From a virus, in the UHGV virus genome UHGV-0038615: DNA of 24,779 nucleotides; one strand, written 5' to 3'. This document shows positions 6,503-9,296 of this stretch, piece after piece. How positions within the stretch are numbered: the first letter of the stretch is position 1; every line of letters begins with the position of its first letter. Below the pieces are notes generated by a model, which was not told the DNA's origin, searched no databases, and was given only the letters and a program-made list of their open reading frames with translations. The translations under genes were made by a program, and so were the position numbers.

Positions 6503-6521
6503 GGCGAGGCGGGGTAAGCAT
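6503..6521. other. cos-like site (candidate 19-nt cohesive end, ggcgaggcggggtaagcat)
   Basis: 17 of 19 matches to the P2 cohesive-end sequence GGCGAGGCGGGGAAAGCAC as I recall it; sits between the replication region and portal Q, as in P2. Confidence 0.5.
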
Positions 6522-6592
6522 TGCGCGCGCCTGTCAAAGATATTAAGATTGTCTCAAAATCGATTGATTTTATTGAACTAATGGAGCTAGGA

Positions 6593-8149
6593 ATGATTAA
6601 GGGTATAGGTCTTCAAAACTTCAGGAGCTTTGTCAACAAAACGTTTATTGATTTAAAACCAATTACAGTATTTGTTGGTAAGAACAGCAGTGGTAAAAGT
6701 TCCCTATTGCGCACATTTCCTTTACTTCGTCAATCTGTAGAAGAAAATACTACTGGCCCAATACTATGGTATGGGAGATATGTGGATTTTGGCGATTTTA
6801 CAGATGTACTTTCCCGAAACTCTGAAAAAAAAGAAATTACGTTTAGTTTTTCACTCTCAATTCCGCCAGAGGTTTCACAAAGATATACATATTATCGTTC
6901 TACTGATTTAGCAAAGCAACCAACAGATATTGAAGCAGAGTTAACTGTTTACTCTAAAGATAAAAAAACAAAAACGAAAACGATTAAGCTTATATTGGCT
7001 GATTTAACAATATTTATTTCAATGGATGAGAGTAGTAATGTTAAATTACTCATTGAATCAGATGATAAAACAATAGAGCGTGATGGGATAATAGCTAAAA
7101 ATCTTGGGCAGTTCATACCAAATCTAATTTTGAAGGGTAAGGAAGACAGTCCTCCTCCAAGCACATCATTCTATTTGAGACATTCTAGGCATGACAGGGC
7201 GTTAGAATTGTCATTTATTGATTCAGCGGCGAAATATATAAAGAAATATTTCCATACTAAATCTGATATAAATCAAGTGACAGAGGCATTCAAAAGAATT
7301 GGCTTTATACCCAAAGCGTACGCTAGTAAATTAGTTGCTTTTCTATTTAAGGAACAAAAAGTTTTTAGTAGAAACTTTGAATTTCAACATGATGAAATAA
7401 TGAATGAGTTATATCCATTTATAATTGGATGGAATATTAATAATCTTATAGATATAATAAATACATCCTTGTCAGATTCATTCAGAAATGTAAAGTACAT
7501 AGCTCCACTGCGTGCTACATCAGAAAGATTTTATCGTTTTCAAGATTTACAGGTTAATGAGATAGATCATACTGGTTCCAATCTTGCAATGCTTTTGAAT
7601 TCATTAAGACCGGCTGATAAATCAAAATTTGAAGATTGGACAAAGTTAAATTTTGATTTCATTATCAAGGTTGAACAAAGTGGCTCTCACTTTGCAATTT
7701 TAATAAACACCGGTGAAAATAGTGAGAACTATAATGTTAGTGATATGGGGTTTGGTTATTCTCAGGTTTTGCCGATAGTTACAGCCATTTGGCTTGAGAC
7801 AGAACGTCGTGCTACCACGGTTAGAAAACCTATAACATTTATCATTGAGCAGCCAGAATTGCATTTACATCCGTCATATCAGCATAATTTAGCAAGTATT
7901 TTTGCAAAAGTAGTAACTAAAGCAAAAGAAAATAATGTAGATTTGAAGATAATTTTTGAGACACATAGCCAGACCATGATTGAAGCACTTGGTGAATATA
8001 TTGAGGAAAATGAAAGTCTTTCACAGGATGATATTTCAATACTGGTATTTGAAAAAGATGATAAGCAGCAGACTATAGTTAAGAAATCTTATTTTGACGA
8101 GAATGGTTTCCTAAAAAATTGGCCGGTTGGCTTTTTCTCGGGTAAGTAG
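6593..8149 (+). CDS. OLD-family / AAA_15-type ABC ATPase, 518 aa (candidate AriA-like component of a PARIS-like system)
   Basis: N-terminal NFRSF plus Walker A VGKNSSGKSS; Walker-B/D-loop-like IIEQPELHLHP; H-loop-like IFETHSQ; start chosen at ATG 6593 with GGAG upstream (the track ORF begins earlier at a TTG inside the cos-like site). AT-rich relative to the backbone by eye. Confidence 0.8.
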   Translation: MIKGIGLQNFRSFVNKTFIDLKPITVFVGKNSSGKSSLLRTFPLLRQSVEENTTGPILWYGRYVDFGDFTDVLSRNSEKKEITFSFSLSIPPEVSQRYTYYRSTDLAKQPTDIEAELTVYSKDKKTKTKTIKLILADLTIFISMDESSNVKLLIESDDKTIERDGIIAKNLGQFIPNLILKGKEDSPPPSTSFYLRHSRHDRALELSFIDSAAKYIKKYFHTKSDINQVTEAFKRIGFIPKAYASKLVAFLFKEQKVFSRNFEFQHDEIMNELYPFIIGWNINNLIDIINTSLSDSFRNVKYIAPLRATSERFYRFQDLQVNEIDHTGSNLAMLLNSLRPADKSKFEDWTKLNFDFIIKVEQSGSHFAILINTGENSENYNVSDMGFGYSQVLPIVTAIWLETERRATTVRKPITFIIEQPELHLHPSYQHNLASIFAKVVTKAKENNVDLKIIFETHSQTMIEALGEYIEENESLSQDDISILVFEKDDKQQTIVKKSYFDENGFLKNWPVGFFSGK

Positions 8150-8151
8150 TT

Positions 8152-9264
8152 ATGTTGATTAATATCGAAAATGCGACACCTGAGAAGGTGCTAAATAACT
8201 CATTTGCCATAGCGGTTGAAAATATACTTCGGGCATTCGCTGAACAAAAACACTTGGTTATAGGGGCAAGGGTTTTTTTTAAAACTATTATCAATGATCA
8301 AAGCGGGCTTTATAGCCTTTCATCAAAAAGTTACGCGCAAGAGGCTTTGTCGGGTCTAACAGAGTACTATGCTATCTTGGATCAGGTCTCATTTTATGTA
8401 TCTGTCGACTTTAATATTAGTGATAAATCATTTAAATGGGTTCAGATCGGTGAATCTTTTAAATTTGTTTGTGGTCCATTGTATTTTAATGACTCGGCAC
8501 AATTGCAAAAAACGAAAATAGTATGTGAAAATCCTTTGGATTCTGATTTTTTTAAGGTTATAGCGGCTCATTATGCCGAAGGTATTAACTTATCTCGCTG
8601 CGAAATGGGTTTTATCGCTCTAAATGGCGGTGGGGGCAGTACTAAGGATATATTCGAGCGTGCAATTCAAAATAATGAGATAGTTTTTTGTATTGTGGAT
8701 AATGACAAAAAACATCCTGGAGCCCCATTCGGAGGTACTTGCTCACATTTTTTGGGCTCACAAATTACTCGCTCAGGTTTCGTGGAGATTTTAGATGTAC
8801 ATGAAATAGAATCTCTAGTTCCTTTATCGACAATTGAAGATGTATTAAGAAGTCAAAGTCAATTGCAACAAAAAGAAAAATCTCTCATTTTCTTTAAGCA
8901 TCTTTGCTCCGTAGATGAATCAGTAAAATTTTATATTGACCATAAAAAAGGTTTTGATTTTAAAACAGCCCTTGAACTCGATCGAAAACATGGTGCATAT
9001 TGGCGTCCGATATTAAAGAAGCTTGATATAAAATATGATTGTGAGTATATCGAATCAAAACGTTGTAGCTGCAACGCTGCTTGTGTAAGTTATGATGGTT
9101 TTGGAGAGAATTTGCTCAGCAATACATTGAAATATATACAAAAGGGAAGTTTAAAAAAATATAATCCTCACCTAACACCAGTGCTTTCTGATAAATGGTA
9201 TAAGTTAGGTAAGAATTTCTTTAGTTGGAGTTGTGGTCCATATAAAAAAGCAAGGGTTGGTTAA
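8152..9264 (+). CDS. TOPRIM-like (DUF4435/OLD-nuclease-like) protein, 370 aa, partner of the upstream ATPase (candidate AriB-like)
   Basis: Start 2 nt after the ATPase stop; candidate TOPRIM glutamate in IVCENPLD and DxD in FCIVDNDKK; C-terminal Cys cluster C-x7-C-x-C-x3-C. Domain assignment is by motif only. Confidence 0.6.
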   Translation: MLINIENATPEKVLNNSFAIAVENILRAFAEQKHLVIGARVFFKTIINDQSGLYSLSSKSYAQEALSGLTEYYAILDQVSFYVSVDFNISDKSFKWVQIGESFKFVCGPLYFNDSAQLQKTKIVCENPLDSDFFKVIAAHYAEGINLSRCEMGFIALNGGGGSTKDIFERAIQNNEIVFCIVDNDKKHPGAPFGGTCSHFLGSQITRSGFVEILDVHEIESLVPLSTIEDVLRSQSQLQQKEKSLIFFKHLCSVDESVKFYIDHKKGFDFKTALELDRKHGAYWRPILKKLDIKYDCEYIESKRCSCNAACVSYDGFGENLLSNTLKYIQKGSLKKYNPHLTPVLSDKWYKLGKNFFSWSCGPYKKARVG

Positions 9265-9267
9265 ATT

Positions 9268-9296
9268 ATCACAGCCCCGATAAAGTGGGCTGTGAT
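9268..9296. terminator. Hairpin between the convergent TOPRIM-like gene and Q (tcacagccc / gggctgtga)
   Basis: 9-bp perfect inverted repeat with a 9-nt loop, directly after the stop of the + strand gene and before the 3' end of Q. Confidence 0.45.

Follow-up and report, generated by a model that had tools for sequence, protein, structure and literature searches.

An ATPase and a Putative Toprim Nuclease Encoded as Cargo Beside cos in a P2-Like Escherichia coli Prophage

The DNA analysed here, virus genome UHGV-0038615 (24,779 nucleotides (nt); this whole stretch is called the window hereafter), comprises most of a P2-like Escherichia coli prophage, including integrase, C/cox, gpA, Q, terminase, and tail genes. 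Between its cohesive-end site (cos) and the portal gene Q lies an AT-rich island with two tightly spaced genes; gene 1 encodes an ATPase of the ABC/OLD type (protein 1) and gene 2 a protein of 370 amino acids (aa) with Toprim-like motifs (protein 2). A first-pass annotation of the window had read them as a split OLD-like pair resembling the PARIS defence system, with the caveat that they might form a distinct family. P4 elements, whose cos-proximal loci enter the comparison below, are satellites of P2. The question raised by this locus is what the pair does and whether it belongs to one of the described systems. Our analysis indicates that it is probably a stand-alone defence system, an ATPase-gated Toprim nuclease carried as cargo at the cos-proximal hotspot; the mechanistic details beyond this are proposed with lower confidence. 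The pair has been catalogued already, yet it is unnamed, essentially unannotated, and a member of none of the named systems.

The ATPase and its partner

Protein 1 matched AAA_15 over its full length (E = 2.4e-27, 96.9 bits, cut-off 32.1) and AAA_21 above the Pfam cut-off (7e-19, 69.4 bits), and its residues 477-515 matched DUF3696 (3.6e-7, 30.8 bits, cut-off 22). Among the PADLOC models, NsnB scored best (3.7e-55), followed by PDC-M55A (6.9e-46), HEC-03B (1.4e-37), and AriA (3.1e-31). Its sequence assigns protein 1 to the OLD/ABC-type ATPases, within the NsnB-like clade. The ABC/OLD models expected at first pass were thus recovered, and the caveat of a distinct family proved correct. The protein is closer to NsnB, PDC-M55A, and the HEC-03 ATPase than to AriA. 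The earlier description was incomplete in that the DUF3696 tail and the link to Menshen were absent from it.

Motif conservation was assessed in an alignment of 17 sequences (32-100% identity). The ABC/OLD motifs named at first pass were all present, and N9/S12, GKNSSGKS, IEQPELHLHP, and ETHS (H-loop) were invariant, as were A-P-L-R307, D-M-G-F-G-x-S-Q, and the W-P-x-G-F-F tail. In the Walker B region, E419-Q420 (7847-7852) replaces the canonical D-E of ABC ATPases in all 17 sequences, so that the hydrolysis-competent state represented by AriA D392-E393 was not found. In AriA, the exchange E393Q led to the loss of ATP hydrolysis, AriB release, and defence (Deep 2024, PMC10802264). NsnB proteins are described with three peculiarities, namely Q-loop Q to R, SGG signature to GxG, and Walker B D-E to E plus an amide (PMC12065111); all three are present in the protein 1 family (R, GxG, and E-Q).

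Protein 2 matched no Pfam model (E ≤ 1), no NCBIfam model, and no PHROG model. Its sole library match was PDC-M55B (2.1e-4, residues 123-281). The first-pass expectation of a significant TOPRIM or DUF4435 match in Pfam was therefore disappointed, and the Toprim call is a structural one. An AlphaFold model built from a 25-sequence alignment (pLDDT, the predicted value of the local distance difference test, 89.6; predicted template modelling score 0.88) consists of an N-terminal alpha/beta domain, a central four-stranded alpha/beta core, and a helical C-terminal region. In the modelled core, E126 and D130 come after strand 1 and a GGG loop (159-161) after strand 2; strand 3 ends in D183-x-D185, and strand 4 is succeeded by H217-E218-x-E220. 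The four strands, the Glu after strand 1, the DxD after strand 3, and a structural similarity to OLD Toprim domains point to a Toprim core. A small Toprim protein and GajA appeared at lower ranks in the match list of the model, and the Foldseek search with the model returned nothing significant.

Fifty-two diverse relatives, with identities as low as 21%, served to evaluate conservation in protein 2. E126, D183, D185, and E220 were kept in 52/52 members and D130 in 51/52, which bears out the E and DxD motifs seen at first pass. G161 was invariant and G159, G160, E218, D263, K265, and G267 nearly so. The spacing of the five putative active-site residues (4/57/2/35) resembles that of E26, D30, D88, E90, and E122 in AriB (4/58/2/32). 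No comparable link emerged from sequence searches. The family profile showed no connection to any solved structure when compared with all PDB sequences, Pfam scans of the 52 relatives gave no Toprim-family link, and none of the members matched PF14491 (DUF4435; E ≤ 0.1), DUF4276, or RloB. The alignment of a shallow 22-sequence AriB set with that of protein 2 by hhalign yielded a probability of 4.9% (E = 0.008, 53 columns), with E126 and D130 opposite E and D of AriB and a matching register for the GGG loop; hhalign runs against single AriB sequences lacked significance, one of them being in the correct register. On the Pfam, NCBIfam, PDB profile, and hhalign results, sequence-level homology of protein 2 to Toprim or DUF4435 was ruled unproven. 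An OLD-type Toprim fold was accepted for the predicted structure in combination with the motifs, whereas the data do not establish homology to DUF4435 at the sequence level. Independently, the depositors of a Pf-like phage labelled their protein 2 homolog a 'putative OLD family nuclease'.

Modelled alone, the N-terminal domain (pLDDT 95.3) resembled generic Rossmann-like folds only, and model comparison detected no PIN similarity; residues 1-118 are a candidate site at which the ATPase tail could dock. The C-terminal Cys cluster pointed out at first pass is real: C297, C305, C307, C311, and C361 lie around a loop (290-310) of low pLDDT, and all but the variable C307 are retained in 40-46 of the 52 members. 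The set C297/C305/C311/C361 may bind a metal, which would fit a metal site missing from the model. The Pf-like phage homolog has no Cys loop, hence the family can do without it. The near-invariant K265 may be the counterpart of the catalytic lysine of OLD, which AriB does not have (PMC10802264); if K265 plays that role, a DNA substrate would be suggested.

These results allow the relationship to PARIS to be weighed. The published rule for PARIS combines AAA_15 (≥32 bits) or AAA_21 (≥27 bits) with an adjacent DUF4435 gene (PF14491, ≥27 bits) (PMC9122126). Protein 1 exceeded both ATPase thresholds and protein 2 gave no DUF4435 match, hence by this rule the pair is PARIS-like in design, yet outside PARIS. 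The first-pass reading thus broadly held for the architecture and the fold and failed for PARIS membership, and the PADLOC search proposed with it gave NsnB first for protein 1 and no AriB match for protein 2. The pair could still be a highly diverged genuine PARIS, whose ATPase would sense anti-restriction proteins (e.g., Ocr) and free a Toprim RNase via ATP hydrolysis. The shared two-gene layout, the AAA_15 score above the PARIS threshold, the order and spacing of the acidic pentad, a weak match of one of the 52 relatives to the PADLOC AriB model (3.9e-4), and the hhalign match in the correct register agree with such an origin. It is at odds with the undetected DUF4435 in the window protein and its relatives, the low profile-profile probability, the better scores of the NsnB, PDC-M55A, and HEC-03B models compared to AriA, the DUF3696 tail and NsnB-type substitutions, a Walker B that is naturally in the state inactivating AriA, and the extra 118-aa domain at the N-terminus of protein 2. 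We consider a diverged PARIS quite improbable.

The association of the two genes was followed across genomes. A word-indexed search found 31 protein 2 relatives versus >4,241 ATPase relatives, the low partner count being due to the word prefilter; an exhaustive profile search recovered 1,860 representatives of the protein 2 family (50% identity level, ~340-390 aa, nearly all full-length). ATPase homologs at 60, 54, 50, 44, 42, and 33% identity were all neighboured by a protein 2 homolog of 363-378 aa, with partner identities of 46, 43, 31, 28, 30, and 24%, respectively. This pairing indicates a stable, co-evolving two-gene module in which the nuclease gene evolves faster. Interchangeable ('polymorphic') partners had been considered and were rejected, given that the neighbours of distant ATPases were all protein 2 homologs and that 1,860 representatives were found.

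The pair spans Gammaproteobacteria, Campylobacterota, and Cyanobacteria. Adjacency is kept in eight other loci (Thiothrix, Geitlerinema, Enterobacter, Rahnella, Tolumonas, Aliarcobacter, an Erwinia-like contig, and a Pf-like inovirus), and the spacing between the genes in homologous loci is 2 nt (three loci), 1 nt, 3 nt, or an overlap. The Rahnella copy occupies the same gpA/Q slot of a P2-like prophage, the Aliarcobacter copy adjoins TraG and an integrase, and the copy of the cyanobacterium Geitlerinema adjoins BrxL. In Pseudomonas phage 62-2 (OR621022), a filamentous Pf-like inovirus, the same module is found at 2399-5035, adjoining the repressor/excisionase and terminal repeat of the phage. 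No protein 2 homolog was detected at the protein level in 72,556 plasmids. In Thiothrix unzii (CP072793, 5338-8001), an insertion sequence element (helix-turn-helix and DDE_3 genes) splits the ATPase into 313 + 199 aa; the partner gene is intact, and a second transposase and a BrnT/BrnA pair lie just downstream.

The conserved split bears on the idea that a single-chain OLD gene (class 1 or 2) was broken by a nonsense or frameshift mutation. Such an event would explain the order of ATPase and Toprim, which is that of OLD, and the mere 2 nt between the genes. However, the genes are separate at every locus examined, across phyla, and no fusion-length protein occurs among the best 150 partner-family representatives. 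In addition, protein 2 possesses its own well-folded 118-aa N-terminal domain and protein 1 its own conserved DUF3696 C-terminus, and the match of protein 1 to a solved OLD sequence covers the first 46 residues only (E = 9.5e-4). A broken OLD gene is therefore extremely unlikely.

A closer relative is Menshen (Millman 2022; Li 2025), which is composed of NsnA (ParB-DUF262 + ParBDB, directly upstream of NsnB), NsnB, and NsnC; the DUF3696 tails of NsnB are predicted to clamp the N-terminal domain of NsnC (PMC12065111). With NsnB as the best PADLOC match of protein 1, a DUF3696 tail, all three NsnB-specific motif changes, Toprim folds among the NsnC effectors, and complete Menshen systems in P4 hotspots, the pair might be a Menshen remnant or a trans-acting NsnBC module with NsnA lost or encoded elsewhere. 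Yet neither the scanned open reading frames (ORFs) of the window nor the genes annotated by RefSeq across the entire prophage include a DUF262/ParB-like gene, and no DUF262/NsnA gene is adjacent to the pair in the eight other loci, which belong to distant taxa. The partner family is large, uniform in length, and co-evolving, whereas NsnC is polymorphic; the missing PIN similarity of the N-terminal domain and the lack of DUF4276 or RloB matches among the members argue in the same direction. This explanation seems highly improbable to us.

Hotspot context and proposed mechanism

The island (6529-9296) has a guanine-plus-cytosine (GC) content of 33.9%, compared to 52.4% on its left and 54.9% on its right. 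This gap far exceeds local fluctuation and the composition is foreign. The gpA-cos-gpQ hotspot carries old and tin in P2, plus many validated systems (PMC9122126), and the island is accessory cargo at this site. The first-pass annotation had recognized both the lower GC at the cos/Q junction and the known cargo site with old and tin, and both points are supported. The island was found in 39 of 5,426 complete E. coli genomes, in every case on the chromosome, while the prophage sequence flanking it was matched in 136 genomes.

The exact pair was catalogued by Rousset 2022 as P2-hotspot system #36, with 105 occurrences; the sequences equal those of the window except for one ATPase residue and a TTG-extended start (PMC9122126). 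A literature search under 'PDC-M55' returned nothing and one under 'PDC-M' unrelated papers only, and no experimental work on the pair was found in the literature searched. In a 2026 survey, only P4 loci were tested, and the unknown cargo of the P4-satellite hotspot was anti-phage in 6/8 cases and incomplete systems in 8/11 (PMC13586616). Neither that survey nor Payne 2024 (bioRxiv 10.1101/2024.01.29.577857) has the pair among its tested systems.

The distribution also bears on a function that is not primarily anti-phage, either as a toxin-antitoxin-like addiction module for mobile elements or as a pair serving the element's own DNA metabolism. The module resides on a P2-like prophage, a Pf-like inovirus, an integrative and conjugative element-like region, and genomic islands, and the cassette is intact in a seemingly defective prophage; PARIS itself has been termed a toxin-antitoxin system of type II (PMC10802264), and the defence phenotype of the present pair is itself a deduction. 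The 39 island-bearing genomes, compared to 136 with the flanks, make it unlikely that the pair has a core function in the life cycle of the phage. Moreover, the pair also occurs off mobile elements, beside BREX, the relatives at this level (PARIS, OLD, Gabija, and HEC-03) are defence systems, and addiction and defence by abortive infection can coexist. A primarily non-defensive role is thus regarded as unlikely.

For a defence system of this kind, the following mechanism is proposed. Protein 1 would oligomerize and, through physical contact with its DUF3696 tail, hold protein 2 inactive. It would double as the infection sensor, since no separate sensor gene (NsnA/DUF262) is present. A phage-derived cue would cause an ATP-dependent conformational change in protein 1, by which protein 2 would be freed or activated; because the catalytic Glu of Walker B is naturally Gln, the switch is probably ATP binding or very slow turnover. 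Protein 2 would then cut nucleic acid, either RNA or DNA, with metal ions bound by E126, D130, D183, D185, and E220, and this cleavage would halt phage replication, probably at a cost to host growth. In PARIS, by contrast, AriA sequesters AriB, which is followed by hydrolysis-driven release (PMC10802264).

Several points weigh against a gated defence nuclease. The pair is absent from the tested-system tables of PMC9122126 and is related only to a PADLOC candidate without experimental support, and HEC-01, the sole tested system with an ABC ATPase and a separate TOPRIM protein, gave no defence (bioRxiv 10.1101/2024.01.29.577857). A sigma-70 consensus scan revealed no site directly upstream of gene 1, with the total number of sites at chance level. 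As no PIN likeness is detectable in the N-terminal domain of protein 2, the docking mode proposed for NsnC is not simply transferable. Similarly, a Walker B Gln would abolish hydrolysis by AriA, AriB release, and defence, which precludes an unchanged transfer of the mechanism of PARIS.

A narrower interpretation is conceivable, although we hold it to be doubtful: the pair might have branched off the Menshen ATPase lineage as an autonomous form that has no sensor and is joined to an OLD-type Toprim nuclease, with an ATPase that is unable to hydrolyse ATP and acts as an ATP-occupancy or ligand-binding switch. If so, this clade would sense phages and gate effectors by a logic unlike that of PARIS, and the core of NsnB and effector would suffice by itself, with sensors of the NsnA type as optional additions.

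Systems that combine an ABC ATPase and a nuclease (OLD, Gabija, PARIS, Septu, and Menshen) are a major theme of bacterial immunity. As an ATPase-gated Toprim nuclease, the pair would add a widespread family missed by current annotation, with 1,860 partner representatives, thousands of ATPases, and a partner nuclease that lacks a Pfam, NCBIfam, or PHROG model and is a 'hypothetical protein' in RefSeq. It also constitutes a natural experiment on whether an NsnB-like ATPase can sense infection without NsnA, and on how an ABC ATPase with a natural E-to-Q exchange in Walker B gates a nuclease. The cassette is compact (2.8 kb) and present in E. coli, and its presence in a P2-like myovirus and a Pf-like inovirus may affect phage-phage competition in clinically relevant hosts. 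While such a system at this hotspot would not surprise a specialist, it is a good and cheap target for validation on account of the size of the family, the lack of a model for the effector and of a gene for a sensor, and the natural E-to-Q exchange.

Features of the island and the remaining prophage

The coordinates of the features are compiled in Table 1.

Table 1. Position of the gene pair, its domains and motifs, and flanking features in the window
Feature	Coordinates	Strand	Remarks
gpA replication gene	3148-5520		
cos cohesive-end-like sequence GGCGAGGCGGGGTAAGCAT	6503-6521	.	left boundary of island
AT-rich cargo island between cos and Q	6529-9296	+	33.9% GC
Shine-Dalgarno-like GGAG	6583-6586	+	6 nt 5' of gene 1 ATG
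Gene 1, 518-aa ABC/OLD-type ATPase, NsnB-like clade	6593-8149	+	RefSeq WP_000589623 'DUF3696 domain-containing protein'
Walker A, G29-KNSSGK35-S36	6677-6700	+	invariant 17/17
Walker B region, I418-E-Q-P-E-L-H-L-H-P427	7844-7873	+	invariant 17/17, also in Pf-like phage copy
DUF3696 tail with terminal invariant W510-P-x-G-F-F	8021-8146	+	Pfam and alignment
Gene 2, 370-aa, three domains, central OLD-type Toprim (predicted)	8152-9264	+	RefSeq WP_000906719 'hypothetical protein'
Protein 2 N-terminal alpha/beta domain, residues 1-118	8152-8505	+	no specific fold relative
Protein 2 Toprim core (predicted), residues ~119-235	8506-8856	+	secondary structure of model and conservation
Protein 2 C-terminal helical region	8857-9261	+	near-invariant D263-x-K265-x-G267 and Cys set
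Intrinsic-terminator-like hairpin with U-rich tail	9267-9297	+	between gene 2 and convergent portal gene
Portal gene Q	9360-10367	-	

The two ORFs reported at first pass were confirmed in position. Gene 1 ends with TAG at 8147-8149 and gene 2 begins with ATG at 8152, leaving a gap of 2 nt, and the RefSeq starts of both genes (6593 and 8152) agree with the ORF calls. A start of gene 1 at TTG 6521 was considered and rejected; it would begin within cos and overrun the conserved N-terminus of the family. ATG 6593 is the likelier start because GGAG is located 6 nt upstream and the family N-terminus matches.

At the left edge of the island, the last base of the linear phage 186 record aligns to window position 6502, and alignments of circularly permuted P2-like phage records to the window end at ~6528. 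The P4/P2 cos sequences of Table S2A include GGCGAGGCGGGGAAAGCAC (PMC9122126). The right edge coincides with the hairpin at 9267-9297, which has a dG of -19.5 kcal/mol (z -6.5; none of 200 shuffles was equally stable).

Between gpA and cos (5484-6220), two further ORFs were noted, one for a protein with DUF3850/ASCH and DUF7415 (5484-5984) and an 82-aa ORF of no known family. DUF3850/ASCH is listed beside several different cargo sets in the hotspot census (PMC9122126); thus, it looks like a semi-conserved resident of the hotspot, outside the two-gene system.

An intact prophage in NZ_AP021944 is 99.96% identical to the window element. Relative to this prophage (L001), the window lacks ~4.0 kb at 11657-11667 (L001 22268-26305), namely the 5' part of terminase gene P, the genes O (scaffold), N (capsid), M, and L, and part of X. 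A further ~3.8 kb are missing at 17844-17848 (L001 32495-36301), from tail gene I through most of the sheath gene. The window prophage looks defective, with the cargo island nonetheless intact. The first junction is contiguous in none of the 5,426 complete E. coli genomes, which leaves a real but rare deletion or an artefact of assembly as its origin.

Two other AT-rich islands were observed. The second one (13750-15500, 33-37% GC) is flanked by the tail genes S and V and encodes in RefSeq one 328-aa protein with hydrophobic stretches that neither Pfam nor PADLOC assigns to a family. The window sequence has an additional T within a T-run, at 14835, which shifts the frame of this gene and gives the ORFs 14221-14964 and 14825-15232; either the gene is a pseudogene or the homopolymer was misread in sequencing. 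The third island (23000-24779) is found at the right end of the prophage, between an ogr-like regulator and the host gene yegQ, and contains the ORFs 23616-24467 and 24413-24724. The island codes for a trypsin-like peptidase of 283 aa (Trypsin_2, 1e-19) that carries a SEC-C motif at its C-terminus; its protease domain is similar to that of the defence proteins RT-Protease_XI (7e-21) and PDC-M35A (6e-13). This peptidase may be another defence or cargo gene.

Comparison with known systems

Two features place the pair near PARIS at the level of genome organization, the adjacency of an OLD/ABC-type ATPase gene and a separate Toprim gene, and the location in cos-proximal P2/P4 hotspots. The five predicted acidic active-site residues occur in the same order with near-equal spacing, and the logic is likely to be the same, with an ATPase silencing the nuclease until infection. 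The differences concern both proteins. Protein 2 has the additional N-terminal domain and a Cys-bearing C-terminal region, and the ATPase falls into the DUF3696/NsnB clade and carries E-Q in Walker B. As this state abolishes the function of AriA, activation cannot depend on hydrolysis here as it does in PARIS.

The ATPase has its counterpart in Menshen. Protein 1 shares with NsnB the AAA_15 domain, the DUF3696 tail, and the motif changes, the effector gene follows immediately 3' of the ATPase gene, and some NsnC effectors have Toprim folds (PMC12065111). Unlike Menshen, neither the window locus nor the eight related loci contain NsnA. NsnC has an inactive PIN-like (inPIN) N-terminal domain, whereas that of the window partner shows no detectable PIN likeness, and the partner is one uniform co-evolving family in contrast to the shuffled inPIN/effector combinations of NsnC (PMC12065111). 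Some P4-like satellites carry an apparently complete Menshen (DUF262 + hypothetical + AAA_15/DUF3696) at the cos-proximal hotspot (PMC9122126, Table S1). Together with the window pair, these loci indicate that P2/P4 hotspots house both a three-gene system and an NsnA-less pair.

PDC-M55, the only library entry matched by both proteins (A, 6.9e-46; B, 2.1e-4), is a 'phage defence candidate' of PADLOC-DB v2, one of 145 candidates without experiments or a described mechanism (Payne 2024 bioRxiv). The PDC-M55B model was matched by 39 of the 52 protein 2 relatives (best 4.4e-11). In the window protein, however, the match is weak and covers about half its length (123-281), and the profile is shorter, with 315 positions. 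The protein 2 family is probably a sister group of PDC-M55B.

HEC-01, one of the Hma-embedded candidates (HEC), likewise combines an ABC ATPase with a separate TOPRIM protein that has an OLD-like metal site (bioRxiv 10.1101/2024.01.29.577857), but its models score protein 1 at 1e-17 or weaker and none of them matches protein 2. Protein 1 has the HEC-03 ATPase as one of its nearest PADLOC matches (1.4e-37). HEC-03 is active in defence and requires both genes (bioRxiv 10.1101/2024.01.29.577857); its effector is a PIN domain, whereas the window partner is a predicted Toprim. The PADLOC model named 'HEC-03B' matches the ATPase (protein 1 residues 356-516), while in the preprint the ATPase is HEC-03A and the PIN protein HEC-03B, hence the A and B labels appear to be swapped between PADLOC-DB and Payne 2024.

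OLD and the Gabija protein GajA share the combination of an ABC ATPase and Toprim nuclease chemistry with the pair, and P2 old sits in the same hotspot. In these proteins (P2 Old, class 1 Ts OLD 6p74, class 2 Bp OLD 6nk8, and GajA) the domains are fused, whereas they are encoded by separate genes in all loci seen here, and the sequence similarity to the window pair is negligible. With a Menshen-type ATPase and a putative effector of the PARIS/OLD type, the pair links two systems.

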